Below are positions 1 to 62,365 of a stretch of DNA of 64,000 nt, one piece after another. This DNA comes from Acidimicrobiales bacterium (GTDB taxonomy: Bacteria; Actinomycetota; Acidimicrobiia; Acidimicrobiales; SZUA-35): the NCBI GenBank assembly GCA_041394345.1, contig JAWKIN010000003.1, positions 62,737-126,736 of the forward strand, in the 5' to 3' direction. The translations under genes were made by a program, and so were the position numbers. How positions within the stretch are numbered: the stretch's first letter is position 1; each line of letters begins with the position of its first letter. Under the pieces are notes generated by a model. The model did not search any database. It was not told where the DNA came from and was given only the letters and a program-made list of their open reading frames with translations.

Positions 1-236
1 TCGGGTGAGTGCTTGTCGTAGCCGAGATGTTCTTCCATCTCGACCTCGAGGCCAGCTTCGAGGACCTGTTTGGTCAGTTTGCCGAGCAGGCCCCCAGGGC
101 CGACCAGATCGACCCCGTCGGCACGGGCTTGTTCGACGAGCTGCTCGGCGATCGATGGATCAACCTGCCTTGGCAGCTCCAGTTCGGTTTCATCATTCAT
201 CTTCGGTGCCATCACGGCACCATCATCATTCATCAT
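1..236 (-). CDS. IS256-family (Mutator-type) transposase, first 78 codons; gene runs off the left edge of the window
   Basis: My reverse translation from ATG at 236 gives MMNDDGAVMAPKMNDETELELPRQVDPSIAEQLVEQARADGVDLVGPGGLLGKLTKQVLEAGLEVEMEEHLGYDKHSP. The GPGGLL..LTK.VLE..LE.EM..HLGYDKH block is the conserved N-terminal region of IS256/Mutator transposases. It is absent from the ORF track because it is open at the edge. The plus-strand ORFs at 5..360 are antisense artefacts. Confidence 0.75.
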   Translation of the reverse strand, partial: MMNDDGAVMAPKMNDETELELPRQVDPSIAEQLVEQARADGVDLVGPGGLLGKLTKQVLEAGLEVEMEEHLGYDKHSP

Positions 237-263
237 CAGAAAGTCCTTCCGGCGAGCCTCAGC

Positions 264-1204
264 TCAACCAGTCAGACCAGACCAGATACACCGTTTTCCT
301 GACAGTCCCAGCCGCCGCGTCGTGATGAGTGGAAAGGTGGTTGATGAACCCGGTTGCTGACTGCAACGACGCCACATAGGTATCACGATCGGTCTCGGTT
401 TCGACGCATAGGCCGGGTTCGGTTGGTTCTGATGCCCACACCACGCAATGAGGGAAGGTCGGATCGATTGGTGTTGCCGGCCCTGCGGGGTTGTGCGCAA
501 CACGACGGGGATGTGAGCAACTTGGATTGGGACGCCCACACCGAATGGGTCCTGGGCGCATGGCCGGGTGACGGTGCCGTCGGCTGCTTCGAAACGGATG
601 TTCTCGAGTGTGACGCGGGCGCCTTCGTTTCCGCTGATACTGACTTGGGTGAGTTTCTCGAGCCTGATGAAGAAATCGGTGCCTGGTCCGTTGTTGGTGT
701 AGACGAGGGCGTCTGCTCGTCGTTGTTCGAGCACGGTGGGTCGGTATGGGGTTGACCAGCCGTGGGAATCGAGGCTGGCGCTGACGGTGCCGTCAGTGTT
801 CGCCCGGTAGAGATCAAAAAGAAGCAGCAAACCTTCATCCTTGGCTACCTCCATGTCGTTTGCCATGTCTTTGCCGAGCTGTTCGTAGTCGATGGATACA
901 TACGGGCTGAGCCAGCCCGGCACCAGGCCTTCAATCCTGACGCCCATATCGTCAAGTAAGTCCTCGGCGTAGGCAGCCAGGCTGTCCCATTGCCCCAGGT
1001 AGTGCTCATCGAAGTTGTCGAGTGCTTCTTCGTTTTCTGTGCCGACGATCTGAGCCCAGTGAGCGAACGCTGGGCCGTGCAGCGTGAGCCCGATAGCGAT
1101 GCGTGAGATCGTCCTGATGCTCTCATACTCATGCGGTTCGAAGGCTCCGAAGTGTTCATAGTCATGTATTGCCCATTCCTCTGCGTCTGGTTGTTTGGAT
1201 GCTC
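264..1204 (-). pseudogene. ardA: ArdA-family antirestriction protein homologue with its 5' end displaced by the IS3 element and an unassigned ~180-aa C-terminal extension
   Basis: This is ORF 264..1235 (-). Residues ~14-145 (KQPDAEEWAIHDYEHFGAF...FDEHYLGQWDSLAAYAEDLLDDMG...YVSIDYEQLGKDMANDMEVAKDEGLLLLFDLY) match the ArdA signature (EEWAIHDYE.F, YIDYE..G.D). The first ~10 codons of the called ORF (MRCHLHVQQT) are encoded by the IS3 left inverted repeat. The distal ~180 codons have no family I recognise and run toward the IS256 end. Confidence 0.55.
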
Positions 1205-1272
1205 GGGTCTGCTGCACGTGTAGGTGACATCTCACATGACTTGCCTGCGGGCTTGTCTGGAAGGATGTTCAC

Positions 1273-1566
1273 ATGCCCAAGCCCTATCCCCGCGAGTTCC
1301 GCGACGACGTGATCCGAGTCGCCCGCAACCGCGACGACGGTGTCACCCTCGAGCAGGTCGCCAAGGACTTCGGGATCCATCCGATGACCTTGTCGAATTG
1401 GATCAGCAAAGACTCGATCGATAACGGCACCAAGCCGGGTGTCACGTCGTCGGAGTCGGTGGAGAACCGTGAGCTTCGCCGGCGGGTGAAGCTCCTCGAA
1501 CAAGAGAACGAAGTGTTGCGCCGTGCCGCCGCTTATCTGTCCCAGGCGAACCTGCCGGGAAAATGA
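1273..1566 (+). CDS. IS3-family transposase OrfA (HTH plus leucine-zipper-like C-terminus)
   Basis: The 97-aa ORF reads MPKPYPREFRDDVIRVARNR...LEQVAKDFGIHPMTLSNWI...ENRELRRRVKLLEQENEVLRRAAAYL, which is the typical IS3 OrfA architecture. Confidence 0.9.
   Translation: MPKPYPREFRDDVIRVARNRDDGVTLEQVAKDFGIHPMTLSNWISKDSIDNGTKPGVTSSESVENRELRRRVKLLEQENEVLRRAAAYLSQANLPGK
1557..1563 (+). promoter_or_regulatory. Programmed -1 ribosomal frameshift heptamer G GGA AAA joining orfA to orfB
   Basis: In the orfA frame the sequence reads CCG GGA AAA TGA. The heptamer G_GGA_AAA fits X_XXY_YYZ. After a -1 slip the next codon is ATG at 1563, which is the orfB frame. Confidence 0.7.
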
Positions 1567-2438
1567 TGTTCCCGCTCGTCCGCGAGCTTGCCGCCGACGG
1601 GATCCCCGTCGCGGTGACGTGCCGGGTTCTCGATCTTTGCCGCCAGCAGTACTACCGGTGGCTGACCGCACCGGTCACCGACCAAGAACTCGACCACGCC
1701 CATCTCACCAACGCGCTCTTCGACGCCCATCGTGACGACCCCGAGTTCGGCTACCGGTTCCTCGCCGACGAGGCCCGCCAGGCCGGCCACGATGCGTGTG
1801 ACCGGACGGTGTGGCGGATCTGCGCGGACAACGGCTGGTGGTCGGTGTTCGGCAAGAAGAAGAACCGGAAGAAGTCAACGCCGGGAACACCGGCCCATGA
1901 CGATCTGGTGCGCCGCGTGTTCACCGCCGAACGGCCGAACGAACTGTGGCTCACCGATTTGACCGAGCATCGCACCGACGAAGGAAAGCTCTACCTGTGT
2001 GCGATCAAGGACGTGTTCTCGAACCGGATCGTCGGCTATTCGATCGACGATCGGATGAAGGCACGACTCGCTGTCACCGCGCTCGACAACGCCGTCGCCC
2101 GCCGCGGCGATGTCGCGGGTTGTGTCCTGCATTCGGATCGAGGGTCGCAATTTCGTGCACGGAAACTGCATCGTGCGCTCGCCCGTCATGAGATGGTCGG
2201 CTCGATGGGCCAGGTTGGTTCGGCCGGTGACAACGCAGCAATGGAATCGTTTTTCTCACTGCTGCAGAAGAACGTTCTCAACCGACGGCGCTGGGCCACA
2301 CGCGAGGAGCTGCGGATCGCGATCGTGACCTGGATCGAGCGGACCTACCACCGACGCCGCCGGCAAGCACGCCTCGGCCGATTGACCCCCATCGAATACG
2401 AAACCATCATGAACCCTCAGACAGCAATCGCTGCCTGA
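1563..2438 (+). CDS. IS3-family transposase OrfB (DDE/rve integrase core)
   Basis: The 291-aa ORF carries a DDE triad context: LWLTDLTEH, VLHSDRGSQF, NAAMESFFSLLQKN. It overlaps the orfA stop by 4 nt in the -1 frame. Confidence 0.9.
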   Translation: MMFPLVRELAADGIPVAVTCRVLDLCRQQYYRWLTAPVTDQELDHAHLTNALFDAHRDDPEFGYRFLADEARQAGHDACDRTVWRICADNGWWSVFGKKKNRKKSTPGTPAHDDLVRRVFTAERPNELWLTDLTEHRTDEGKLYLCAIKDVFSNRIVGYSIDDRMKARLAVTALDNAVARRGDVAGCVLHSDRGSQFRARKLHRALARHEMVGSMGQVGSAGDNAAMESFFSLLQKNVLNRRRWATREELRIAIVTWIERTYHRRRRQARLGRLTPIEYETIMNPQTAIAA

Positions 2439-2481
2439 TCAACCTGTCACCTGATCGTGCAGCAGACCCCAGCCCTATTCA

Positions 2482-2837
2482 ATGCGGATCAAGTCTGAGG
2501 ACAACCCCTTCAACATCGGTTTGGCGATCACCTGGCGGGTTCAGGACCCAGACAGTGATGAGCACCTGTAGCGGGTCTGGATCGCCTGTCACTTCGACGA
2601 ACCGGTACGTACCGGGATCGTCATCGGGCCGTGGTGTCTCGACCCCCACCCCAACGCAATCACGGCGTCACGCGACAAAGCAAACAAATTGACAGCCGCC
2701 GACCGAACCGAACTCGAAGAACTCGAGTTCCTCATGAACAACCCGATCAACTTGTCGCGGGAGACGACTGGCTCAAAGAACCCGTTTCGATCGTCGACCC
2801 ACGAAACTTCGTGTATCCAGACACAACGAAAGACTAA
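2482..2837 (+). pseudogene. Small hypothetical gene (in-frame TAG at 2569 and a frame change near 2745)
   Basis: It starts at ATG 2482: MRIKSEDNPFNIGLAITWRVQDPDSDEHL*RVWIACHFDEP...KLTAADRTELEELEFLMNNP. After a shift it continues DQLVAGDDWLKEPVSIVDPRNFVYPDTTKD. Its TAA (2835-2837) overlaps the ATG of the next ORF (TAATG), which suggests translational coupling. I recognise no family. Confidence 0.3.
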
Positions 2838-3019
2838 TGGCCGGGCTCCACCTCCAAGAACTCCTCATCGTCGTAGTGATAGTGTTGGCTGTCCCCTTCA
2901 CGCTCGCAGCCCTCATCATCATCTGCAGCCGCAAGAACCATCACCAACAAACTGACCCGCCAACAGACCAAGCAGTTACCCCAACCCACAGCGACGGCGA
3001 CACGACTATGAGCGCTTGA
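2837..3019 (+). CDS. Small predicted single-pass membrane protein (60 aa)
   Basis: The ORF has one hydrophobic span (LLIVVVIVLAVPFTLAALIIICS). Its start overlaps the stop of the upstream ORF. Confidence 0.35.
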   Translation: MAGLHLQELLIVVVIVLAVPFTLAALIIICSRKNHHQQTDPPTDQAVTPTHSDGDTTMSA

Positions 3020-3026
3020 TTGAATT

Positions 3027-3257
3027 GTGCTCACGGACGAGATGAGAGCCGTAGCGAAACTGAAAACCGCACAAGCAGCCGACCTCACGGTCTTGCAAGC
3101 CCAGATGTTGAAGCGTGTGCGGAACGGCAGAGACGATCGAGCGATTGACCCGCACGCAACAAAGGGCAATGGCATCCCTCGTCGAACTCGGGTACTCGAG
3201 ACAGGGCCTAGTGGCAATCTGATCGTCACACCCACAATCGCCGAGGTGCTGCAGTAG
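3027..3257 (+). CDS. Hypothetical 76-aa protein
   Basis: The ORF begins 8 nt after the preceding stop and has plausible composition (MLTDEMRAVAKLKTAQAADLTVLQAQMLKRVRNGRDD...). I recognise no family. Confidence 0.3.
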   Translation: MLTDEMRAVAKLKTAQAADLTVLQAQMLKRVRNGRDDRAIDPHATKGNGIPRRTRVLETGPSGNLIVTPTIAEVLQ

Positions 3258-3289
3258 CGCGGTCCCACGCCTTGGGTGGGCGGCACCCA

Positions 3290-3634
3290 CCTTGGCAGGG
3301 TCGTGATGTCTGGGAGGATCAGTGACCTCCCCAACACAAGCCCCCACATGAAATAGTCTTCGACCGTCATCGGCAACTCGCCGGTGATTTTTCGACGTAG
3401 ATAAACCACAGGTGCATTCAACGCTTCAGCGAAATCTGGCGTTGTCCATTCGAGCTCGACGAATAGTCTTCGCACCTCGATCACGGCTCGGTGCTGTTGG
3501 AAGGCCGCCATCGAGCGTGCCTTCTCCACACGATCTGCTTGCTCGTCCCAGAGCGCGGCAGAATCCCGCCCGAACAGGGCGGGATTCTTCATGTAGGTCC
3601 TTGGTTCAAATCGTGACCGTGTCATGCGTGACAT
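3290..3634 (-). CDS. XRE-like helix-turn-helix protein; 3' boundary undefined
   Basis: This is the N-terminal ~115 codons of ORF 2834..3634 (-). The segment IEVRRLFVELEWTTPDFAEALNAPVVYLRRKITGELPMTVEDYFMWGLVLG fits an HTH_XRE layout. The remaining ~150 codons are Cys/Trp-rich, overlap the plus-strand cassette and look non-coding, so a lost stop or frameshift is likely. A strong hairpin (3561-3587) lies inside the first 25 codons, so the true start may be a downstream Met. Confidence 0.4.
3561..3587. terminator. Strong GC hairpin (11-bp stem, 5-nt loop), possible nrdJ / cassette terminator
   Basis: The hairpin is GAATCCCGCCC-gaaca-GGGCGGGATTC. It lies about 130 nt downstream of the nrdJ stop on the minus strand. 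The T-tract is weak (TTC on the plus strand). Confidence 0.35.
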
Positions 3635-3697
3635 CCGTGACCGGATTTGGACATCGCGTGACCGGATTCTGACATTCAGTGACCAGAACCCGGTGAC
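3613..3697 (+). repeat. Array of six same-orientation GTGAC-core repeats, including a 19-bp direct repeat with 21-bp phasing
   Basis: GTGAC occurs at 3613, 3628, 3637, 3658, 3679 and 3693. CGTGACCGGATTTGGACAT (3636-3654) and CGTGACCGGATTCTGACAT (3657-3675) share 17/19 positions. The array sits in the intergenic gap between the nrdJ stop (3716) and the XRE-like gene start (3634). Confidence 0.65.
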
Positions 3698-3715
3698 ACG
3701 AGATGACCGTTCACA

Positions 3716-6521
3716 CTAGCTACAGCCGCTGGTGTTGCCGCAGTCGGGGCACGCATGACAGGACCCAGCACGCTGCATCTTGATGCCGCACTGCATGCAG
3801 ATCGGTGCATGCGGGTCACTGACGGGCGCTGAGCTGTGCCCGGTTGCCGCTTCCTTGGCGACGAGGTCAATCATCGCCGCCGGCGACTCGATCGACGGCT
3901 TGTCGACCGGCAGCTCACTACCTTGCACCGTGGAGGCCTCTTCGACGCCCGGCAGGGTCTGCTGGGTGCGCTCGGAGGTGGTGAAAATACCAAGGTCGGC
4001 GCGCTCTTCGTAGGGGATGTAGAGCACGGCAAGCTTGCGGAACAGGTAGTCGATGATCGAGGTCGCGATACGAATATCAGGATCATCGGTCATGCCAGCT
4101 GGCTCGAACCGCATGCCAGTGAACGTCTCGACGAAGTTGCGCAAGGGCACGCCGTACTGAAGGCCATGGCTCAGAGAAATAGCAAGCGCATCCATGATGC
4201 CCGCCAACGTTGAACCCTGCTTGGAGACCCGAAGGAAGACCTCGCCGGGGCGCCCGTCCTCGTATTCGCCAACCGTGACGAACCCTTTGCAGTCGGCGAC
4301 GCGGAACTCGAAGGTTCGCGACGAACGGTTGCGAGGGAGGCGCTCACGAACGGGCTTGTAGACAACCTTCTCAAGTACCTCGGTGACCTTGATCGCCGCA
4401 TCGGCGACACCAGCGGCCGCCGCTGGCGTAGCGTCGTCCTTCTTGGCCGTCGAGAGAGGCTGGCCGACCTTGCAGTTGTCGCGATAGATGGCGACGGCCT
4501 TGACACCCATGCGCCACGCATCCATGTGGAGTTGCTCGACGTCTTCGACGGTTGCGTCCTCTGGCATGTTGACCGTCTTGGAGATGGCGCCCGAGATGAA
4601 CGGCTGCACGGCAGCCATCATCTTGACGTGGCCGAGGTAGTGGATCGTGTTGTCGCCCATTGAGCAGGCGAACACGTCAACGTGCTCAGGCTTGAGGTGT
4701 GGCGCACCCATGATCGACTTATTGAGGTCGAGGTAGGCCGCAATCTCAACGATCTGACTATCGCTGTAGCCCAAGCGTCGCAAGGCACGCGGCACCGACT
4801 GATTGACAATGGTCATCGTGCCGCCGCCGACCAACTTCTTCATCTTCATGAGGCCGAGGTCGGGCTCGATGCCCGTCGTGTCGCAGTCCATCAGCAGACC
4901 GATGGTGCCCGTTGGGGCCAGCACCGTCGCCTGGGCGTTGCGCACACCGACCTGGAGGCGCCAGCTCACAGGTTGCGTCCCATGCTTCTTGGGCCGCACC
5001 GAGGATGTCGACCGGGGCGAGCCTTTCGTCGATATCGGCGGTGGCCGAACGGTGCTGTTCGAGCACTCGCAACATCGGCTCACGGTTGACTCATAGGCCG
5101 GCATGGACCCATGCGAGCAGCCGTCTTGACGGAGGTGGGAGATAGGCGTGGCCCGTCAGCCGTGGAGCGTGGGCGGGCGTAGGCGCGGCCCGCTTCGGAG
5201 TCGTAGGCCAAATGAGGTTCATCAGCAAGGCGCCGATGTTGGCATATTGAGGCCGAGTTGACGGAATTGGCGAGAGGTCTCACCGTGATGCCTTCTGTCG
5301 GGTAGTCGGCTCGGCCAACGAGGATCTCCTGAGCAGAAGAAATGCTCGATCGCCACCTTGTAGCCCTCAACGTTGAACGTGTCGTCGTCGTTGGTGAAGC
5401 CCATGAGGTTGAGGCTGGCGAGATTGCACGCCGAGTTGTCGAGGTGCATGTATTCGCTGCACGGGTTGGAGCCGTTGATCTTGCCGGTCACCGCCGAGGT
5501 GTGCCAGCGGTTGATCGTCGAGTCGAACTGCATGCCCGGATCAGCACATTCCCAGCTGGCCTGGGAGATCTGGCGTGATCAGCTCACGGGCCTTGACGAC
5601 TCGGACAACGTCGCCCGTCGTACGGGCGATGAGTTTCCAGTCGCCATCGGCTTCGACGGCTTCCATGAATTCGTCGGTGACCCGGATGGAGTTGTTGGCG
5701 TTTTGATATTGGATCGAGTGGCTGTCGGCGCCATCATCCATGTCGAAACCGGCGTCGCCGAGGACGCGGGCCTTGCGTTCCTTCAATGGCCTTGCACCAG
5801 AGGAACTTTCGATTGGAAACGATCGACGTCGAGCATGACCATCTTGGCAGCCCGACGTGTCTTTCCGCCGTCTACGGTGCCGAGCCGACGAGTCGGCGCC
5901 ACGCATGAAGCTGACGGGCCCCGACGCAGTGCCACCACCCTTGAGCAGTTCGTAGCTCGAGCGGGATCTTCGAAAGGTTGACACCAGCACCGAGCCACCC
6001 TTAAAGATGGAAGCCTTCCTCGACGTACCAGTTGAGAATTGCGTCCATCTTGTCGTCGACGGCCAGATGAAACAGGCGGAGTGCTTGCTGGGGCACGCCC
6101 TCGACGCCGATGTTGAACCAGACGGGTGAGTTGAACGCACCCTTTGGTGGATGATGAGGTACTTCAACTCGTCGGAGCAGATCTGGGCCTCGTCCTCGCT
6201 CACTGTGAAGTAGCCGCCCTCACGGCCCCACGCAGTGATGGTGTCGACAACCCGGTCGGCCACGGTCTTGAGTGACGACTCGCGCTCTGGAGTTCCTGGA
6301 TTACCACGGAAGTACTTCTGGGCGAGGATGTTGGTGGCGTTTACCGACCAAGTTGACGGGACCTCGACGCCCAACTGTTCGAAGGCCACCTCGCCCGTCT
6401 TCCAATTGGAGATGCGAGCGTCACGCTTCTCCCAGATCACGGTGTCGTACGGATGGATGCCTTCGGTGGTGAAGTGGCGGCGGAGGACCAATACCGGTCT
6501 GCTTTCGGGGGCAAGTGTCAT
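3716..6521 (-). pseudogene. nrdJ: Class II (adenosylcobalamin-dependent) ribonucleotide reductase NrdJ, at least 4 frame changes as sequenced
   Basis: ORF 3716..5104 ends ...[30 protein letters not shown] 5222..5533 carries the active-site motif NPCSEYMHLDNSACNLASLNL. ORF 5783..5998 carries GGKTRRAAKMVMLDVD. ORF 5541..6908 carries the N-terminus from ATG 6521 (MTLAPESRPVLVLRRHFTTEGIHPYD..ILAQKYFRG..SACFI..IFKGGS..LKGGGTASGPVSFMRGAD..QYQNANNSIRVTDEFM). GGAAG lies 8 nt upstream of the ATG. Confidence 0.9.
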
Positions 6522-6649
6522 TACAACTTCCTGGAATGAGTCCTGAGGGACTCGATATGTGAGGGAAGGTAGCGCCACCGGGCCACGTCGTTGTGGCTGC
6601 GATGTCGATACCAATGATGTCGCTTCCGGACAAGGTGTCCGGCTGGGGG

Positions 6650-6713
6650 GTGACGTGGAAAAGTGACGTGTCGGAAAGTGACGTGTCGGGCTGGTAGTGA
6701 CGGAGGACGTCAC
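6650..6713 (+). repeat. GTGACG/ACGTCAC repeat cluster in the nrdJ 5' leader
   Basis: GTGACG occurs at 6650, 6663, 6678 and 6697, with inverted CGTCAC at 6708. There is a perfect tandem AAGTGACGTGTCGG at 6661-6674 and 6676-6689 (15-bp period). GTGACG-gagga-CGTCAC forms a 6-bp hairpin at 6697-6713. Confidence 0.65.
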
Positions 6714-6822
6714 AACACACGAGGTCGCAGTCGAACAGGTCGCGGAGGGTGCTGATCCGGTGAGGGAGGGGACACAATCTGCAGATGACTTGTTCTTCGG
6801 CGGGGACAGAAAGAGAGCGAGC

Positions 6823-6861
6823 GGTGAAACGAAACATGCAGCTACCGGAGGTGGCTGCATG
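6823..6861 (-). terminator. Hairpin plus T-tract in the nrdJ leader (candidate attenuator)
   Basis: The minus strand reads CATGCAGC-cacctccggta-GCTGCATG followed by TTTCGTTTC. It has an 8-bp stem and lies about 50-90 nt downstream of the NrdR box and about 300 nt upstream of the nrdJ ATG. Confidence 0.35.
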
Positions 6862-6912
6862 TGGCCAAGACTGAACGTTCGATTCTTTCGCCGGGGGGAC
6901 GAAAGCACTGAA

Positions 6913-6928
6913 ACACTACATCTTGTGT
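6913..6928. promoter_or_regulatory. NrdR box
   Basis: ACACTACATCTTGTGT matches 14/16 positions of the published NrdR consensus acaCwAtATaTwgtgt. It lies upstream of nrdJ, and nrdR itself is encoded at 13999..14469. A second, poor candidate (ACACTAGATGGAGTAG, 6954-6969) is not convincing. Confidence 0.55.
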
Positions 6929-7594
6929 TTCTCAGGTCCTCGGAGAGAACGACACACTAGATGGAGTAGACATACAACACTGAAATTACATCGCTGTCAA
7001 CGACTGTGAACAAGATACTCAGGGGGTCTGACAGTGTTCGGGGCAAGTCCTGCTTGGCTTGCTGTGAGGATGACCACACACCGTGTTTTGGTCAGGAAAG
7101 AAACTTTTTCCGATCTGGTCGACATCCATCCGAACCGCTCAGATTCGACTCGCTTCAGGTTGAAAAAGAACATGACCGGCGAGACCGGTCAGCTGAGCGG
7201 GTCGAGGTTGGCAACCGCAAGGCATCCGATGCCCGCTGCGTCCACCCAAGGGCAACGTACGTGCGCCCGGCCATACCGCTACACCGGACCGCCTGACTGG
7301 TCGTTCAAAACCATAGGGTCTCGCTCCTGTGGATCGTGTGTGGACGACCCTGTGTATTCATGTGAATTCGCGAAGAATTTGTGGACACCACGCTTGGCGA
7401 GTCGCACCGCCCGGAGAGAACAAAACCCGTCAGATACTCGGCTTTGGCCCGAGTGGCGTAGCTTCTGACGCCACTCGAGCGATTCGCCGGGCCGACTGGA
7501 GCTAAGACTTCTTACCCAGAACGCCCCGCTGGCACTGATTCGATGGCACAATTTCGGGCCGCAGATCGACTGTTGCGGAACAGTCGTGCGGTCC

Positions 7595-10435
7595 ATGAGC
7601 AGCGTTTGGCAGACGCTGCGACGATCACAAAGGCCCTTAATGCGACGGATATCCCAATTCTTTCTCTCACTCATGCTGCTCGCTGGCGTCGTCGTCGGCG
7701 TCGCAGCCTCAAGTCTCGCCGTGGTCAATGACTGGGAGATCTACGCACCGTGGGGCGTCACCGCTCGCCACCGATCGTCAGACACGAAACAACATCTACG
7801 TCTACGAGATCGAAAACATCAACGGCATCGTGTACGTCGGCGGAGCTCTTCAACAGGTCGTCCATCGCGACTCGCCTGACCAACCGATCGACCAACCCTT
7901 TATCGCGGCGTTCGACGCCGCCAGCGGTGACCCGGTCGCCACCTTCCGCCCTGTCCTCGACCATCCGGTGTATGCCATCACCGAACACCCAACGACCGGT
8001 GCCATCATCGTCGGCGGTGAATTCACCATGGTGAATGGTCAGCCCCAAACAGGACTCGTCGCCCTCGACCCTCTCACGGGAGCAACCGATACGTCCTATG
8101 ACGTCGACATCGTCCTTGGCGGCAGTTGGCGAGCAACCGTGTGGGCCCGACTCCGACGGCGCCTCGATCTACATCGGCGGCGGCTTCGACCGAGCAATCG
8201 GCACCAACGGCGGCTTCAATCGATCCAACCTCGTCAAGACCGACCTCCAGGGCGCCATCGACCCAACCTGGGATCCCGCCGTCAGCGGCGGTGGCGTGTG
8301 GACGATAGCTCTGACGACCGACCAACAACGCCTCGTCTTCGGCGGTCGTTTCAACCTGGTTGACGGGGCGTATCGACCCGGCATTGACAGATGGTCGAGA
8401 GCACGGGTAGCGGCACCCTGACCAATACGTTCACGCGGTGGGAGCAAGTCGCCCCCTACTGCTATGGCGGCTATCCCGGCTGCATCTTCGTGTACGACCT
8501 CGACGTCGCCGACGGCAAGATCCTGATCAGCGCAGCGGAACACTTCTCGGCACTCCACGACACAACAGCCCGCATCAAGCTCTGAGAGCGAGTCCAACGA
8601 CACCCAAGCCGGGCCTCTACAACGGGCTCGCTTGGACGACCCGGACACGGAGGCGACAACGGCATCGGCTTGTATTACGCCTACAACCTCCAGACCATGG
8701 CGCGAGAGGTCACGACCAGTGGACGACTCAGCACCGGGGCTGGCGGCTTCGCCTATGAAGCCGGACCGAACGGGTGCGTCTGGTTTGGTGGCGCCATCGG
8801 TGGCATGGATCTGGCCGACGTGCCAGGCAACAGCAAAGTAGCTGCGCAGTTCAATCTCGGCTTCATGTGCCCACCCGGCACGCCGGTCCCAGCGTCTTCA
8901 CTCGACATCACCAACTGGCAAACTCCATCGGGCTTGCTTGTCCGCGGGCTTCGCACCACCGACGTCGGCTACACCTATGCCGTCTTCGCCTACACCCCAG
9001 CAGCCGACGCAGTTCGCCACGACGTTCTGGTCGATGGTGTCATCGTCGGCAACGACAACGACGGCTCATTTGCGTTGAGCGACCTCCGACCGGGCCGTGA
9101 CGGCCGACGCCTTCGTCCGATCGGTGAACGCCGCTGGCGAGACGGGGACCGCGCTCATCCGGGTTACGGCCAACTCAGCCACCGGCGATCGCCCGACAAC
9201 AAGCCAGGCGTTAGCGTGCGGCAGATCACCGACTACTCGGCCTCGTACCCCGCCAGCAACGCAAACGACGACAACATCGCCAACACGTCAATCACGGGCT
9301 ACGGATTCCAGCGTTGGTGGGAGATCGACCTCGGCTCCTCCCAAGACCTCTCACAGCTGGAGATCTATGCCCGAGCTGGCGCACCCCAGCAGACATCGAA
9401 CTCACTTCCTTGTCTCGGCAACGCTCACCTCTGACTCACTTGCGGTCAACCAGGCGCTCGCCTCGACCGACGTCTACATCGCCGGCAACATGGGCTACCC
9501 GACGACGGTGGCCCCAAACGACACCGGCCGGTACATCCGCATCCAGACGGACAACAACAACTATCTCTCCATCGGCGAGGTCAACGTCACCGGAGTCGCC
9601 GACGTGGCCGGCGAGGTGGTCCTTGCCAATCCGTTCTCGATTGACCGAACGCCACCAGCGGGCAACCTGACCTGCAGCCTCGCCGTCAACGCCACCAACG
9701 TCACCATCACCTGGACCGGCGACAAGGCGGACGCAATCGGTCGTGTTCCGCACCCCAACCGGCGCCAACACCTCATATGCGTCGTTGACCTCCCCGGCAC
9801 CTCGTTCACCGACACTCAGCAACGGCGTCACCTACAACTACGAAATCCGTGAACGCACCGGCCGTCAACGGCGACCCAATCAACTGCGGCGACGTGTCGC
9901 CACCGGATCCGCCACCAGCGGGCAACCTGACCTGCAGCCTGCCGTCAACGCCACCAACGTCACCATCACCTGGACCGGCGACACCAACGCGGACGCAATC
10001 GTGTTCCGCACCCCAACCGGCGCCAACACCTCATGAAAGGCCGCGTTGACCTCCCCGGCACCTCGTTCACCGACACCCTCAGCAACGGCGTCACCTACAA
10101 CTACGAAATCCGTGAACGCACCGGCCAAGTCAACGGCGACCCAATCAACTGCGGCGACGCGGCCGCCACCGATCCGCCACCAGCGGGCAACCTGACCTGC
10201 AGCCTCGCCGTCAACGCCACCAACGTCACCATCACCTGGACCGGCGACACCAACGCGGACGCAATCATCGTGTTCCGCACCCCAACCGGCGCCAACACCT
10301 CATGGCGCGCACGTGCGACACCTCCCTGGCACCTCGTTCACCGACACCCTCAGCAACGGCGTCACCTACAACTACGAAATCCGTGAACGCACCGGCCAAG
10401 TCAACGGCGACCCAATCAACCGCGGCAACACCTAA
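7595..10435 (+). pseudogene. Large secreted multidomain protein (signal peptide, beta-propeller-like repeats, F5/8 type C discoidin-like domain, three tandem ~87-aa repeats); many frame changes and one in-frame TGA
   Basis: The signal/TM segment is RRISQFFLSLMLLAGVVVGVAASSLA (ORF 7586..). Repeated IVYVGG.L / IIVGGEFTMVNG / IYIGGGFD / LVFGGRFNLVDG blocks appear in ORFs 7728.., 8035.. and 8391... The discoidin-like part reads NANDDNIANTSITGYGFQRWWEIDLGSSQDLSQLEIY ... RYIRIQTDNNNYLSIGEVNV (ORFs 8670.., 9097..). The C-terminal repeats read PPAGNLTCSLAVNATNVTITWTGD..ADAI.VFRTPTGANTS...LPGTSFTDTLSNGVTYNYEIRERTGQVNGDPINCGD. The terminal TAA is at 10433-10435. Confidence 0.7.
9652..10435 (+). repeat. 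Three near-identical tandem coding repeats (~260-265 bp each)
   Basis: The unit start CCACCAGCGGGCAACCTGACCTGCAGCCT recurs at 9652, 9912 and 10177. The copies differ by a few substitutions and 1-3 nt indels. Confidence 0.85.
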
Positions 10436-10500
10436 GACACCATGGCCGCTTCATGGCGCCAACTCGAAATCCAGCGCGGTGCGGTGTAGCGTCGCCCGCA

Positions 10501-11746
10501 TGGATATGAACCTGCCGCCAGAAGCCGACGTCTTCGTTCAAGCATCACCACCTTCCTCGACGAAAACCTCCCCGCCGACTTCCCCGGAATCGGCGCGTAC
10601 GGCGGCGAGGAAAAGCTCGCGTTCTTGAAGGAATGGCGCGCCAAACTCTCGGCTAACCAGTTGCTCGCCTTGAGCTGGCCCGCCGAATACGGTGGCGCTG
10701 GGCTCAGCGCGCTCGAGACGGTCGTTCTCCATCAGGAGTTCGCCAAGCGTGGCGCCCCAACCGGTGGCTCGAACGACGGGTTCAGCATCAACATGGTGGG
10801 CAACACCATCCTCGCCGTCGGAACCGAGGAGCAGAAGAACTACTTCCTCCCCCGCATCCTGTCGGGCGAAGACATCTGGTGCCAGGGCTACTCCGAGCCC
10901 AACGCTGGCTCCGACCTCGCGGGGCTGGGCTGTCGGGCCGAACTCGATGGTGACGAATGGGTCATCAACGGCCAGAAAATCTGGACATCCAGTGGGCACA
11001 ACGCCGATTGGATCTTCGTGCTGGCCAGTACCGATCCAACGGCGCCCAAGCACAAAGGCATTAGCTTCCTTCTGGTACCCATGCGCCAGCCCGGCGTCGA
11101 GGTTCGGTTCATCAAGAACATCGCTGGCCACAACCATTTCAACGAGGTTTTCTTCGACGACGCTCGATGCCCGAAGGAGAACGTACTCGGCGAGGTCAAC
11201 GGCGGCTGGATGGTTGCCAACGTGCTGCTCGGCCACGAGCGCGGCAGCGGCGCCACCGTCACCCCAATCGTCTTCCGGGCCGAACTCGACCGGCTCGTAG
11301 AAATCTGCAAGGCCCGCGGCCTGACCGACGATCCGGCGGTTCGTCAAGGCTTGGCCGATTTCCACACCCAGGTCGAGTTACTCCGCTTTGCCGGCATGCG
11401 CGCGCTGTCGCGTTACCTCGCTGGGCAAGCACCTGGGCCCGAGTCATCACTGTTCAAATTGGCGTGGAGCGAGTATCACCGCCGAGTTTCCGAGGCCGCG
11501 GTCAACTGGCTCGGCGCTGATGCCATCGCTGGTTTCGGTGACTCCACGGCCGACGGCCTAGGCGCCTCCGGCATCGGCGTTAAAAACGATGTGGGCGCCT
11601 GGCTCTACGCCTTCTACATTGCCCGTTCAGGCACGATCTACGCCGGTACGAGCCAGGTCCAGCGAAACATTATCGGCGAGCGGGTCCTCGGCCTTCCTCG
11701 CGAGCCACGAGCCGACGCCGGCCCGTGGAACGAAACGACTCGGTGA
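10501..11746 (+). pseudogene. Acyl-CoA dehydrogenase family protein (one frame change near 10535)
   Basis: ORF 10625..11746 carries WPAEYGGAGLS..GYSEPNAGSDLAGL...DGDEWVINGQKIWTS. The N-terminus from ATG 10501 (MDMNLPPEADVF) joins in frame only if one base is restored (ttcgtt vs expected ttccgt), which gives ...FRSSITTFLDENLPADFPGIGAYGGEEKLAFLKEW. Confidence 0.85.
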
Positions 11747-12498
11747 ACGCAGCCGAGCCCCCAATCGTCGACCTTCTGTCGTGCGATCGGTCGGCCATCG
11801 ACCCCATGGAGGACGTCGCCCGCGAGCGACGCCACCACGACGATGGCCGACCCTGGGTGTTCACCAACATGATTCAGTCGGCCGACGGTGCCACATCGAT
11901 CGACGGGCTCTCGGCCCCGCTGGGATCACCAGCGGATCTGGCGATCCTCCTCGCGCTGCGCGCCGTCGCTGACGTCATCGTGGTTGGCTCGTCAACCGCA
12001 TCCGGTGAGGGGTATCAGCCGCCCAACCCGTCGTCGGCCACCCGTCAAGCCCGCCGCAGCCGCAGTCAATCTGACCGACCGCTCATCGCCGTCGTGACAT
12101 CGTCGCTGTCGATCTCACCATCGGCCCCACTGTTCAGCGACCCAAGCTACCGGCCGCTGATTATCACAACCGACAATGCGCCGGCCGACCGAGCGGCGGC
12201 CCTTGGCTCGGTCGCCGACCTCGTTGTCGCAGGCGACACCCAGGTGTCACTCCCCCAGGCCATCGAGCTCCTGGCCGACCGCGGCCATCGCCACGTGCTG
12301 CTTGAGGGCGGCCCGATTCTCAACGGCCAGTTCGTCGTCGACGATCTGATCGACGAATGGAACATTACGTTCGCCCCGCTGCTGGTCGCCGGAAGCGCAG
12401 CCCGCCGCCCATGGACCGACGCAAAGCCGCGAACACTGACGCTCGCTCGGCTCTGGGAGTCAGGCGGCCTACTGTTCGGACGATATCTCCGGGGCTGA
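11725..12498 (+). CDS. RibD C-terminal domain / pyrimidine reductase family protein
   Basis: The 257-aa ORF carries FTNMIQSADGATSIDG.SAPLGSPADLAILLALRAVADVIVVGSST...HVLLEGGPILNGQFVVDDLIDEWNITFAPLLVAG. It overlaps the ACAD stop by 22 nt. Confidence 0.7.
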   Translation: MERNDSVNAAEPPIVDLLSCDRSAIDPMEDVARERRHHDDGRPWVFTNMIQSADGATSIDGLSAPLGSPADLAILLALRAVADVIVVGSSTASGEGYQPPNPSSATRQARRSRSQSDRPLIAVVTSSLSISPSAPLFSDPSYRPLIITTDNAPADRAAALGSVADLVVAGDTQVSLPQAIELLADRGHRHVLLEGGPILNGQFVVDDLIDEWNITFAPLLVAGSAARRPWTDAKPRTLTLARLWESGGLLFGRYLRG

Positions 12499-16120: not shown

Positions 16121-17008
16121 CTAGCTTGCTGCTATCGCGTCGCGCTCCTTGGCGTCGCGAGCAGCCTGGGCGATCCGCCGCTGCTCAAGCGATTGGGCGG
16201 CGATCTCGTCAACCTCGCCATCGGTGAAGCCGGCCATTTTACGGAATTGGCGGGCCAGCTTGATCGGTGAGTCGTCTTCCTCGCCCCGGGCGCCGCGGCC
16301 ACTAAAGAGGCCGTCGACGACGCGTTGGAACTCCAGCGCTGCCTTCCGCCGCTCCGGATCGTTTTCGGTCACCGCCCGCAACCAGCGCGACCCCATCTTC
16401 ACATGCGTCACCTCGTCGGCGAGCATGTAGTCCTCGCAATACTCCAGGACGGGGTCGCCAAGGGCGACGCCAAACTCGCGCATCTGGGTAAAGACGTCGA
16501 TGGCAAGCCCTTCGAGCGCACGGTTGACGCCAGCCAGGCGAAACACCGGGTCCTCGTGGCATGCGGCCTCAAACAGGGTCGTCGTCTCGACATACTCGCC
16601 GAGCTCGCCGCCCATATGCTCGGCCAGCTTGATCGAGATCTCGCAGTGGCGCGCCTCGTCCCAGCATTGGCGAGCCATGTCGAGCTTCAGTTCGTAGGGG
16701 ACCTCGTCGGTGCCGAAGTCGAACGCCGTGCGGCCCGCGCCCTCGAGCGCCTGGATCTCGCCGACAAAGATGCCATGCATCCGACGGCGGGAGCGCTCGC
16801 CTGCATCTTCGGCCTCGGGGTCGACGGTTCCCAGTTCGAGCGTGTCACGCTCGTCAAGAAAGCGGGCCTCGCTGTCTTGGCGAGTGAATCGGGCATCGCG
16901 AGCGAGGGCGGATGGTGGAATGTTCTTGCGCACTGGGTCCCCTCCAGGTTCTGGAACAGTGCGCAGCTTAGAACGTTCTCCGGGCTCGACGCCAGGCACG
17001 GGCCCCAA
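16121..17008 (-). CDS. Ferritin-like DUF455 family protein
   Basis: The 295-aa ORF carries FVGEIQALEGAGRTAFDF...LDMARQCWDEARHCEISIKLAEHMGGELGEY...YMLADEVTHVKMGSRWL. Confidence 0.7.
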   Translation of the reverse strand: MGPVPGVEPGERSKLRTVPEPGGDPVRKNIPPSALARDARFTRQDSEARFLDERDTLELGTVDPEAEDAGERSRRRMHGIFVGEIQALEGAGRTAFDFGTDEVPYELKLDMARQCWDEARHCEISIKLAEHMGGELGEYVETTTLFEAACHEDPVFRLAGVNRALEGLAIDVFTQMREFGVALGDPVLEYCEDYMLADEVTHVKMGSRWLRAVTENDPERRKAALEFQRVVDGLFSGRGARGEEDDSPIKLARQFRKMAGFTDGEVDEIAAQSLEQRRIAQAARDAKERDAIAAS

Positions 17009-17030
17009 ACGGGCACACTTAGTGCCGACT

Positions 17031-19432
17031 ATGGGCCCCTATCAACCACTCGGTCTCCCGATCGATGACGTCGCCGACGAGGTGTCCACGGCTATGCGCC
17101 ATGGTGGCGCAGTGATCACCGCCGAGCCGGGAGCGGGAAAATCAACGGTCGTTCCGTTGCTGGCCGCCCAGGCAATCGACGGCACGATCTATCTTTCGGA
17201 GCCTCGCCGAGTCGCCGCTCGGGCAACGGCTCAGCGCTTGGCCGAGCTCGCCGGCACCGAGGTCGGCGATGGGGTCGGACTCATCATGCGGGGCGAGCAC
17301 CGACGCTCGGCGCGCAGCAAGATCGTCGTGATGACTGAGGGCGTGTTGGCCCAGATCATTCGCTCGGAGCCCGACCTTCCTGGGGTAGGCGCCGTCATCT
17401 TCGACGAGTTTCACGAACGCAGCCTGCATGCCGACCTAGGACTAGCGATGAGTGTCGAGGCTCGCGATGCGCTCCGACCCGACCTCGCATTGGTGGTGAT
17501 GTCGGCCACCATCGACGCCATCCCGATTTCGGGCCTACTGGGTGGCGCCCCGATTATTGCGGCTGCTGGTCGAACGTTTCCCGTCGAAACCGTTTGGTCC
17601 AATCGGGTACCTGAAGCGCGGTGGGCCGGTCATGTGGCGCAGCTCACCGCCACCGCAGCCGCCCAGGTTCGCGGCAGTGTCATTGTTTTGTGCCCGGACG
17701 TCGAGGATCAGCGACGTCATCGGCGAGCTGGCGCGGCTCGGTCTGTCCGGCGACGGACTTCATGGCGGTAGCGACGCACCAACCCAACGCCGCCTGCTGG
17801 GCCCGACGACGAGCCAGAGAATCATCGTGGCCACGTCGGTCGCCGAGACCTCGCTCACGATCCCAAACGTCGAGGCCGTCGTCGATGGCGGTCTAGCGAA
17901 GGGCCGCGTACGACCCCCGGACAGGACTCGGCCGACTCGAAACCGGCTTTGTAACGAGGTTCAGCCGACCAGCGGCGGGGCCGAGCCGGCCGACTCTCGC
18001 CGGGGTCTGCTTCGAGCGTGGTCGGAGGAGGATCATCGGCACCTCGACAACGCCATCTCCCGAGGTGCTCAGCGGCGACCCGCTCGAGCTCGGCTTCGCT
18101 CTGGCCCGGTGGGGAGACCCCTACGGCGTGTCGCTTCCTCTACTCGATCACCCGCCAGCGCATCGACTCGATGCGGCGTTTGCCCGCCTCGCCGACCTCG
18201 GACTCACCACCGAGACCGGTGCAGTGACCCCCTTCGGACATGCGGCCGCCACACTCGGGGTCCACCCGCGAGCGGCTGCGCTTCTGCTTCGCGCCGCGCC
18301 GACGCCTTCGCTCGCGACTGCTGCGCTCGCGGCTGCGGTGCTCGACTCCGACCAGTATCCACGGTCAGACGACTTCGAGGCGGAGGTCAGGCTGGCGAGC
18401 AAGACACTTCAGAGAGAAGCCGACCGACTCGCCAAAGCAGCCACATCGAATTCAGAACCTCCCGTCGCACGACGTACCGGTACGAGCGATGCACCAACCG
18501 ATCTAGCCAACCTGGCCGCCGCGGCCTGGCCCGACCGTGTCGCATTGCGACGCGACGAGACCGAGCGCTACCTGCTGGCCACTGGACGCGAAGTAAAGCT
18601 CCGACGCAACAGCCCGCTGCTCGGTTCCGAAGCACTCGTGGTGGTCGATGCTGATGCCGATGCAACCGCAGGGTTTGTGGCCCGAGCGCTCCCCCTGAGT
18701 CGTGGCGACGCAATCAACAGACTCGAGCCTCTCGCCGCAGAGCGAAACGAGGTCAGGTGGGATCAACCTCGCGGCCGGGTCGTGGCCGAGCAGGTCATTG
18801 CCTACGGCTCGCTTGTTTTCCGCCGGCGCCCCGACCCCGAGCCTGCCCCCGGACTCGTTCGCTTGGCGATCCACGACGCAGTCAGACGCAGCAATCTCGA
18901 ACTCCTTCGATGGACCGATGCGGCACTCGCCACACGAGCACGCTTGCAGTGGCTCCACCAACAAGATCCGTCAGGGTGGCCCGACGTGAGCACGTCATGC
19001 CTGGTCGACCGACTCGATGAGTGGCTCGAGGTCGGTGGGAGCCAAAACATCACTGCGATTGGCGAGATCCCTGTTGCCTCGTCATTGCTTCGACTTCTCG
19101 ACTGGAAGCAGCGCGACGAACTGAAGCTCCTCGCCCCCGCTTCACTTGCGACGCCAGACGGGAGAAGTGTCGCTGTGAGCTACGAAAGTGGCGAGCCCGT
19201 GTGGGCGGTTCGTTTGCAGTGGCTCCTCGGCCTCGACACGCACCCGACGGTCGGACCAAGTCGATCGCCGATCACCATCGAATTGCTGTCACCGGCCGGT
19301 CGACCAGTGCAGCGGACCCGTGATCTACCCGGGTTTTGGCGCGGCAGCTATCAGGCGGTTCGGTCCGATCTACGCGGACGGTATCCGAAGCACAATTGGC
19401 CAAGCGATCCGCTCAAGCCCGACGAACGGTAG
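17031..19432 (+). pseudogene. hrpB: ATP-dependent RNA helicase HrpB (DEAH-box), at least 3 frame changes
   Basis: From ATG 17031: ...AVITAEPGAGKSTVVP...VIFDEFHERSLHADLGLA...VVMSATID (ORF 16710..). RIIVATSVAETSLTIPNVEAVVDGGL appears in ORF 17542... The HrpB C-terminal domain is in ORF 18065..19432. Confidence 0.85.
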
Positions 19433-62174: not shown

Positions 62175-62289
62175 AGTGCCAGCGGCGGCCGCTTCAGGTG
62201 TTGACCTTTGGTCTGATTGCTGGGAATCCTCGATTACTGGACACCCAGAACGAACCTTGTTTGCTGATAAGCCAGCCGCATCGCTCAGC

Positions 62290-62365
62290 AAGTCCGAGCC
62301 TGGCACCTTGGGTGTCCGTCCTAGGTTGCCGGACCTCAGGAGAGAGTCACTCTGAATGCTTGCAC
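62290..62365 (-). ncRNA. Candidate SAM-I-clan (SAM-I / SAM-IV-like) riboswitch core in the leader of the Cys/Met PLP enzyme gene
   Basis: The minus strand reads ...CAUUCAGAGUG-ACUCUCUCCUGAGGU-CCGGCAACC-UAGGACGGACACCC-AAGGUGCCAGG-CUCGGACUUGCUGAGCG-AUGC.... It has the GAGUG / CCGGCAACC / AAGGUGCC elements in the order seen in SAM-I and SAM-IV aptamers. It lies 120-190 nt upstream of the ATG. I could not build a convincing P1. Confidence 0.4.

Follow-up and report, generated by a model that had tools for sequence, protein, structure and literature searches.

The region examined here comprises positions 1–3716 of a 64-kb window, the whole stretch of 64,000 nucleotides analysed from contig JAWKIN010000003.1 of an Acidimicrobiales metagenome-assembled genome (MAG; GCA_041394345.1). 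It lies downstream of nrdJ, which encodes a class II, B12-dependent ribonucleotide reductase, and the rest of the window served as the reference for GC content. From left to right, the region carries the end of an IS256-family element, an open reading frame (ORF) deposited as the antirestriction protein ArdA, an IS3-family insertion sequence (IS), a stretch of orphan sequence with small ORFs and a gene for an XRE/Cro-fold helix-turn-helix (HTH) protein (Table 1). An earlier reading of the bare sequence, hereafter the original prediction, had listed these pieces as one mobile-element remnant, and all of them were found at about the positions proposed there, with refinements. The components are all of known kinds and nothing in the region challenges current understanding, and the pieces do not make up one recognisable element. 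We consider it likely that the 3.7 kb represent decayed, IS-rearranged, horizontally acquired DNA in a variable region downstream of nrdJ, and not a working mobile element. The description as a remnant thus holds for the abundance of IS sequence, the atypical composition and the decay of the ArdA/IS part, but not for the union of the five pieces in a single element.

Table 1 Features of the region downstream of nrdJ, with positions in the 64-kb window
Feature	Position	Strand	Basis and remarks
IS256-family element end	1–309	−	Transposase start codon ATG at 236, first 78 codons visible (236 to 3); blastn and terminal repeat
IS256 terminal inverted repeat	~282–309		Outer end at 309, 73 bp outside the ATG at 236
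Chimeric ORF MEZ5340530.1 ("antirestriction protein ArdA", 317 aa)	264–1217	−	GTG start at 1217 inside the IS3 left inverted repeat; stop at 264–266 inside the IS256 terminal repeat region
Unrelated gene fragment fused in frame to the ArdA 3' end	310–812	−	Homology at ~555–809
ArdA gene fragment	813–1202	−	C-terminal ~130 of ~185 residues; Pfam PF07275
Complete IS3-family insertion sequence	1205–2473	+	Inverted repeats, orfA/orfB, slippery site, full-length relatives
IS3 left inverted repeat (IRL)	1205–1229		
IS3 orfA	1273–1566	+	Pfam HTH_Tnp_1
IS3 −1 slippery heptamer G GGA AAA	1557–1563	+	
IS3 orfB	1563–2438	+	Pfam rve, E 6.4e-22; NCBIfam transpos_IS3
IS3 right inverted repeat (IRR)	2445–2470		Complementarity reaching 2473
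Orphan stretch with small ORFs	2474–3250	+	Open reading frames only
Small ORF 1	2631–2837	+	Overlaps small ORF 2 in TAATG
Small ORF 2	2837–3019	+	One predicted membrane (hydrophobic) helix
Small ORF 3	3027/3042–3257	+	Starts 8 nt after small ORF 2; 3042–3257 annotated as MEZ5340533.1, hypothetical, 71 aa
XRE/Cro-fold HTH gene	3270–3634	−	Homology over the first ~120 codons (3634 to ~3270)
Spacer and first XRE codons	3612–3715	−	Spacer of 81 nt that separates nrdJ from the XRE gene
CGGTCACG, three copies	3612–3619, 3636–3643, 3657–3664		In the spacer and first XRE codons
21-nt direct repeats, two copies	3636–3656, 3657–3677		In the spacer
nrdJ, class II B12-dependent ribonucleotide reductase	3716–6521	−	PDB matches 7b9p and 1xje; fixed landmark

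The composition of the region sets it apart from its surroundings. GC content is 59.3% here against 63.2% across the remaining window, in agreement with the lower GC that had been remarked upon for parts of it. Compared with 800-nt windows taken from elsewhere in the 64 kb, the ArdA fragment (54.8%) and the orphan stretch (56.6%) both lie under the 5th percentile; the XRE gene has a GC content of 58.1%. Apart from the IS transposases, searches with Pfam, PHROG and NCBIfam found no integrase, relaxase or replication gene in 1–3716, as the original prediction had stated for the visible part. No tRNA gene was found in the window DNA scanned, and no att-like direct repeat of the nrdJ end or of the spacer behind it occurs in 1–3600; the left boundary lies outside the window.

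Decay is evident in the ORF deposited as ArdA. The minus-strand frame at 264–1235 is 100% identical to MEZ5340530.1 (P0001), whose contig of 169,971 bp also carries locus tag R2706_03535, and it matches the ArdA profile PF07275 (E 1.3e-22) with 81.6 bits, well over the gathering score of 27. The match spans ORF residues 15–130, corresponding to profile positions 39–146 of 155, such that the first 38 positions are missing. Similarly, 96 ArdA homologues of ~177–200 aa cover ~40% of the ORF and align just to its residues ~10–142. Within that part the fragment is 45–63% identical to full-length ArdA proteins from Acidimicrobiia metagenomes, with a best match of 56% among GTDB representatives; a PDB sequence search with the fragment returned no match. 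The earlier identification of an ArdA-like antirestriction ORF, a type exemplified by ORF18 of Tn916, is therefore correct, but it applies to the C-terminal two-thirds of the protein only. In an alignment with eight homologues the ArdA part in the window opens at ...SKQPDAEEWAIHDYE, and the conserved N-terminus PRIYAASLADYNxGxLHGxWIDA is missing from the ORF. The natural C-terminus is kept to within 2–3 residues, homologues ending (...HLFEP*) at ~813, and the stop codon of the gene itself is missing. Compared with full-length ArdA, then, the fragment retains the residues for profile positions 39–146, lacks the N-terminal ~52 residues, its own start and its own stop, and is joined to foreign sequence on either side. 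As a relic, it probably has no antirestriction function.

Past the end of ArdA the reading frame stays open for another 181 codons, which the original prediction had taken as an extension of ArdA. This extension is instead an internal fragment of an unrelated gene for a secreted protein. In a HMMER search of 1.84 billion proteins, in which the extension, the N-terminal part of the XRE gene product and five small ORFs were submitted as one concatenated query, the first 85 codons past ArdA matched residues 328–413 of P0119 (E 2.5e-6), an 824-aa secreted protein with a C-terminal NucA/NucB domain, and the same codons matched the repeats of P0100 (E 1e-13). By BLASTP the identity to P0119 is 41% over 85 aa (residues 328–412; E 2e-12). 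The homology to secreted proteins begins at the exact codon where the ArdA homologues stop. Further along the frame, no homologue was found for 310–555 in the same HMMER search, and the codon-position GC pattern fades below ~450. ORF boundaries and homologies together mark the deposited "ArdA" as a four-part chimera: as its sequence reads, MEZ5340530.1 is composed of four codons from the IS3 repeat, ArdA residues ~53–183, an internal piece of a different gene with unassignable sequence after it, and fifteen codons from the IS256 end. This protein is unsuitable as a member of the ArdA family or as evidence for a longer ArdA architecture.

Both outer parts of the chimera derive from IS elements, which bracket 895 bp between the outer end of the IS256 element at 309 and the IS3 element at 1205–2473. 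On the left, the frame from the ATG at 236 encodes MMNDDG...GLLGKLTKQVLEAGLEVEMEEHLGYDKHSP on the minus strand. By blastn, window positions 9–153 are 70–72% identical (E 6e-12) to genes annotated as IS256-family transposases on plasmids of Nocardioides, Rhodococcus and Streptomyces. Profile support is weak because just 78 codons are visible: Pfam Transposase_mut gives a below-threshold match over positions 13–51 (E 0.13) and a PHROG transposase family matches at E 3.9e-5. The window repeat GGGACTGTCAGGAAAACGGTGTATCTGG ending at 309 matches the terminal repeats of two of these IS256 copies (L171 and L172), where they read GGGG(T/A)CTGTCAGAT..CGGTGTAACTGG and GGGACTGTC(G/A)GG. The terminal inverted repeat of IS256-family elements typically lies ~70–100 bp outside the transposase start. 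Like annotated IS256 copies, which encode Mutator-type transposases, the window sequence has the transposase N-terminus ...GLLGKLTKQVLEAGLEVEMEEHLGYDKH and the terminal repeat GGGACTGTCAG..ACGGTGTA.CTGG; unlike complete copies, just its first 309 bp fall inside the window. The repeat end at 309 and the transposase match thus indicate an IS256 element that occupies 1–309 and continues leftwards, which bears out the transposase start proposed for 1–236 on the minus strand and extends it to the terminal repeat.

The IS3-family element on the other side is complete, with inverted repeats whose 29-nt arms (1201–1229 and 2445–2473) are 86% complementary. It scores 263.6 bits against a cut-off of 160 with the NCBIfam model transpos_IS3 (NF033516). 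The orfB gene lies in the −1 frame relative to orfA, and the heptamer GGGAAAA, kept at the same place in four IS3 relatives, precedes the orfA stop and leads into the orfB frame. Over its whole 1.27 kb the element aligns end to end, at ~76% nucleotide identity, with IS3 copies from plasmids of Rhodococcus, Nocardioides, Nocardia, Kocuria and Micrococcus, and these copies start and end at the same positions as the window copy; the nearest copy, in L006, has 74% amino acid identity. The window element shares with these actinobacterial copies of ~1.27 kb their length, the GGG(A/T)CTGCTGCACG... terminal repeats, the orfA/orfB layout, the heptamer and the DDE (rve) domain. It differs from them as a new sequence variant, and in that a target-site duplication is not recognisable: no matching 3–4 bp flanks were found, and under the same end definition such flanks were seen in just one of four relatives. 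The element looks intact and autonomous, with predicted −1 frameshifting. Given intact orfA and orfB, the GGGAAAA site and both inverted repeats, it is the sole part of the region likely to be active as a mobile element.

The position of the IS3 element on the 5' end of the ArdA ORF had suggested an insertion into that gene. While the element itself is complete as claimed, the idea of a simple insertion is not upheld. With five ArdA homologues as tblastn queries, the first ~52 ArdA codons were found neither to the right of the IS3 element nor anywhere in 1–8000. The 5' end of ArdA is absent from the other flank of the IS3 element, so the element did not simply insert, and deletion or recombination probably removed that end. 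The ArdA/IS part is best read as a decayed, almost certainly non-functional patchwork produced by IS activity.

To place the ArdA fragment, we compared it with 80 ArdA loci from genome representatives scanned with an ArdA alignment. A conserved module emerges from these loci. In an Acidimicrobiaceae chromosome (L002, 6726–14734) it consists of Replic_Relax, an N6_N4 DNA methylase, DUF6290, ArdA, HTH_3, an IS and a large serine recombinase, and the HTH_3 gene overlaps the ArdA stop. At least 15 loci among L001–L019, in genomes as well as MAGs from Acidimicrobiia, Solirubrobacterales, Micrococcales and others, have most or all of these genes next to ArdA with the order unchanged. The module appears to be a widespread family of integrative elements, and its good conservation across Acidimicrobiia and other Actinomycetota makes this carrier of ArdA a modest lead for mobile-element cataloguing. 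Compared with the order Replic_Relax, N6_N4 methylase, DUF6290, ArdA, HTH_3 and large serine recombinase, the window lacks every partner gene: none, including Replic_Relax and the serine recombinase, was found anywhere in the 64 kb. Conversely, apart from ArdA and IS3, no part of the window turned up within 10 kb of an ArdA gene in these 80 loci. The absence of the partners, together with the absence of the other window parts from the vicinity of ArdA elsewhere, indicates that the ArdA piece is an isolated relic of such an integrative element. Its ancestor was probably one of the serine-recombinase/Replic_Relax/methylase/ArdA/HTH_3 elements common in Acidimicrobiia and other Actinomycetota, in which IS insertion would have been followed by IS-mediated deletion or recombination that removed all other parts of the module.

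The segment between the IS3 element and nrdJ is a unit separate from the ArdA/IS part. Its principal gene is convergent with the small ORFs and co-directional with nrdJ, and it starts 81 nt past the nrdJ stop. The ORF runs from 3634 to 2834 (266 codons) with no stop where its homologues end, and overlaps the plus-strand small ORFs. HMMER returned ~45 homologues of 110–150 aa, the best at 50% identity, while the full 266-aa ORF had no homologue in a word-indexed search of 5.8 billion proteins. The protein has no match in Pfam (E up to 10), NCBIfam or PHROG, nor in the plasmid and phage collections, and six of its homologues have no Pfam match at E up to 0.01. An AlphaFold model on the family alignment A2 (pLDDT 89, pTM 0.81) gave top 50 Foldseek matches in the PDB that are almost all of XRE type, among them ClgR, DdrO, C.Esp1396I, lambda cI and HigA, with an rmsd of 1.5–2.0 Å over ~60 residues; Foldseek probability is 1.0 for these matches, with modest E-values of 0.02–0.3. 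As modelled, the gene product is an XRE/Cro-fold HTH protein of an unclassified family, and the designation "XRE-like" was right at the level of the fold. Its predicted ~60-residue core superimposes on those of XRE/Cro-C1 regulators such as ClgR, DdrO, the C-proteins of restriction-modification systems, the lambda cI N-domain and HigA/HipB antitoxins. The family differs from these known regulators in going undetected by Pfam HTH models, in having a conserved N-terminal extension (RF.PR.Y...P..FGR), in the long helix that precedes the HTH, and in being recurrently placed directly after nrdJ.

As in autoregulated repressors, this small gene is preceded by tandem repeats (Table 1). The spacer aligns with that of L085, a 1.3-kb contig, and shares the motifs GATGTCCA..AATC.GGTC and GGTCACG with L174. 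From their position and conservation, the GGTCACG-containing repeats are probably operators of the XRE gene itself, which would then be autoregulated. Directly after the nrdJ stop stands the 12-mer TGTGAACGGTCA (3704–3715), which is found at the same position in an otherwise unrelated locus (L165, 8817–8828) and nowhere else among 170 loci. In L165 it makes up most of a 14-nt spacer before a convergent gene for a LuxR-type response regulator.

The contexts of the XRE family link it to nrdJ and not to ArdA. The closest relative (P0099, in L085) directly follows the 3' end of nrdJ on the same strand, and a second (P0104, 36% identity) follows a 977-aa NrdJ in L174; beyond it in L174 lie an ISL3 transposase fragment, two genes of unknown function and a SNIPE/T5orf172 nuclease gene. 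A family HMM found no member in any of the 80 ArdA loci. The inclusion of the XRE gene with ArdA in a mobile remnant does not survive this comparison, as the family instead recurs directly after nrdJ in two other contigs. The gene is also absent from 80 other metagenomic nrdJ loci, which are 59–74% identical over the NrdJ C-terminus. Downstream of nrdJ, the DNA is unrelated in all 80 of these loci, even the closest, while the upstream side (the nrdR region and neighbours) is syntenic. As a consequence, neither an insertion boundary nor an empty site can be drawn, and the synteny comparison that had been proposed to set the insertion boundary relative to nrdJ yields none. In our reading, the XRE gene forms the border, on the nrdJ side, of a variable region prone to acquisitions. 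Its small XRE-fold family, which profile libraries do not recognise and which recurs directly after nrdJ, is a modest lead for cataloguing mobile elements in uncultured Actinomycetota.

Other members of the family occupy varied positions, some of them unremarkable. In L173 a homologue lies 1 kb after the transfer-messenger RNA (tmRNA) gene and is enclosed by direct repeats. The two copies of this 485-nt repeat (4951–5435 and 7483–7969) are 85–94% identical and lie 2.5 kb apart, and the repeat begins precisely where the tmRNA gene (4593–4953) has its 3' end. The arrangement could represent either a small island or a segmental duplication, located at the ssrA hotspot. Two further contigs, L086 (149–6435) and L087 (156–6438), which have 72% nucleotide identity, carry a Tn7-like set of a TnsA-like protein of 281 aa, a TnsB-like protein (rve and Mu-transpos_C), TniB and a 642-aa DUF4379 protein; the set lies 50 bp from a member of the XRE family and is divergent to it. 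The flanks hold AbiTii on one contig and HsdM on the other. A Tn7-like end at the nrdJ stop of the window (TGTG... and repeats) was considered and rejected, as the 12-mer in L165 is plain spacer and tblastn with two proteins of the set, the TnsA-like protein and TnsB, gave no match in the window. IS3 OrfB is the only rve protein in 1–3716.

Of the remaining sequence in this segment, the orphan stretch is of doubtful coding value. The three translationally linked plus-strand small ORFs of the original prediction exist as described, but their status as a coding cassette has no support beyond the open frames. The proposed search of the small ORFs with HMMs gave no match in Pfam or PHROG, nor in NCBIfam; HMMER found no homologue except MEZ5340533.1 itself, and the DNA at 2474–3716 has no match in the plasmid collection. 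The most coding-like codon-position GC (GC3) in the stretch belongs to a different plus-strand frame, from 2482 (2482–2830), which begins MRIKSEDNPFNIGLAITWRVQDPD and contains an in-frame TAG at 2569. Read over 2482–2952, this frame has no homologue by HMMER; possibly it is what remains of a further gene interrupted by the IS3 element.

The source is a MAG of uneven assembly quality, which the adjoining nrdJ gene makes plain. In three-frame translation its last (3') 1.2 kb lie in one frame, while at least 10 frame switches occur over ~1.25 kb between ~6200 and 4950. The in-frame pieces are 62–88% identical in amino acid sequence to the NrdJ of L144 (ungapped tblastn), and the switches look like consensus indel errors of the MAG and not like an old pseudogene. 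The stretches with homologues in 1–3716 are each in a single frame, so the sequence is usable, with caution at homopolymers. Elsewhere in the window, the plus-strand ORFs 16710–17771, 17542–18654 and 18065–19432 overlap in different frames (16710–19432), which suggests frameshifts in a long gene.

Several other explanations of the region were weighed against decay and rearrangement by IS elements. Could the ORF at 264–1217 encode a new and functional protein, in which a shortened ArdA has gained a C-terminal domain and which is expressed from a promoter pointing outwards from the IS3 end? The frame is uninterrupted for 317 codons and annotated as a gene, and the codon-position GC pattern persists for ~350 nt past the end of ArdA. 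Yet the architecture is unique to this contig, with no other protein joining both parts. In addition to the loss of the first 38 ArdA profile positions, the tail comes from the interior of a larger protein, the ~95 codons after it have no homologue, show a non-coding composition and end inside the IS256 repeat, and no promoter-like site was found facing the ORF. We regard such a protein as scarcely credible. That the juxtapositions at the IS ends are assembly artefacts, formed by chimeric joins of reads from different loci or strains, is very unlikely in our judgement, although repeats such as IS copies are classic misjoin points, the nrdJ frame switches with flanking identity of 62–88% point to indel errors, and further chains of overlapping same-strand ORFs in the window hint at more frameshifts. 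Against these signs, no frame switch interrupts the homology of IS3 orfA, IS3 orfB, the ArdA fragment, the XRE gene or the 3' 1.2 kb of nrdJ, so that the consensus of 1–4950 looks sound; moreover, the fragment between the two IS elements is itself made of pieces from two unrelated genes that meet without a repeat, which misassembly would not yield.

The two other alternatives concern what lies beyond the visible pieces. The original prediction had left open whether these were the edge of a larger element or a decayed remnant, and the latter fits the visible part, where ArdA is without its 5' third and without both of its canonical neighbours. For a larger, still functional integrative or conjugative element that continues left of the window and exposes an IS-peppered cargo end here, one may cite that the ArdA genes of relatives always lie inside modules with a serine recombinase and Replic_Relax, that the recombinase of the module lies downstream of ArdA, which here is leftwards and beyond the window, and that GC is low across the whole 3.7 kb. 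We nevertheless find this improbable: ArdA is 5'-truncated, the HTH_3 neighbour that normally overlaps its stop is replaced by an unrelated gene fragment and then the IS256 end, the methylase and Replic_Relax are absent between ArdA and nrdJ, and the nrdJ end has no att-like direct repeat in 1–3600. Alternatively, the XRE gene and its repeats could mark the edge, on the nrdJ side, of islands from a family with site-specific insertion just after the nrdJ stop, with the IS elements, the ArdA relic and the orphan ORFs as degraded cargo. The succession of nrdJ and the XRE gene in three contigs (the window, L085 and L174), in which NrdJ is just ~62% identical and the XRE protein 36–50% identical, speaks for such islands, as do the absence of the XRE gene from the 80 other nrdJ loci, the closest at 74% identity included, the differing DNA beyond it in the three contigs, with the ISL3 fragment and the SNIPE/T5orf172 gene in L174, and the low GC of the gene in the window. 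The occurrence of other family members within the 485-nt repeats after the tmRNA gene and beside the TnsA-like/TnsB/TniB/DUF4379 module is in line with it. On the other hand, the XRE gene has neither an integrase nor a transposase linked to it in any of the three contigs, the search for a second att copy found none, and the XRE region of L174 is compositionally not distinct. The three occurrences are equally explicable by vertical inheritance with losses, and the presence of the 12-mer after the nrdJ stop in L165, which has no XRE gene, fits a conserved nrdJ 3' flank as well as an att core; no paper in the literature library searched links nrdJ to an integration site. Such islands are tentative and, on balance, unlikely. 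The broader proposal that the XRE family and tandem GGTCACG-type repeats mark the border of islands inserting site-specifically after the nrdJ stop, that the tmRNA flank may be a second target and that the window holds a decayed example is one to which we give little credence; if true, the 3' end of the class II ribonucleotide reductase gene would be a previously unreported integration hotspot in Actinomycetota.

Decay and IS-driven rearrangement of acquired DNA therefore remain our preferred reading, and some observations weigh against it or its parts. An integrase or the remainder of an element could lie left of the IS256 end, beyond the window. The target-site duplication of the IS3 element is undefinable, which leaves the missing ArdA 5' end as the single line of evidence for the deletion model. 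If the T5 run at ~818–822 had one more T, a TGA would arise right after the ...LLLLF codons, and in an assembly with many nrdJ frame switches the in-frame fusion of ArdA to its tail could be a homopolymer error; the juxtaposition of two gene fragments stands regardless. Finally, the operator role of the GGTCACG repeats is deduced solely from their position and conservation.

Two further features of the window lie outside the region. About 4.6 kb (6900–11500) separate nrdJ from a gene with a RibD_C domain (11725–12498) that is directly upstream of nrdJ in most relatives; the intervening DNA holds genes for an acyl-CoA dehydrogenase and for a probable secreted beta-propeller/galactose-binding protein, the latter apparently frameshifted, with no mobile-element genes seen in it. 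Near the right end of the window, the minus strand carries a SAM-I/IV riboswitch at 62247–62364, which scores 45.7 bits against the Rfam gathering threshold of 41.1.

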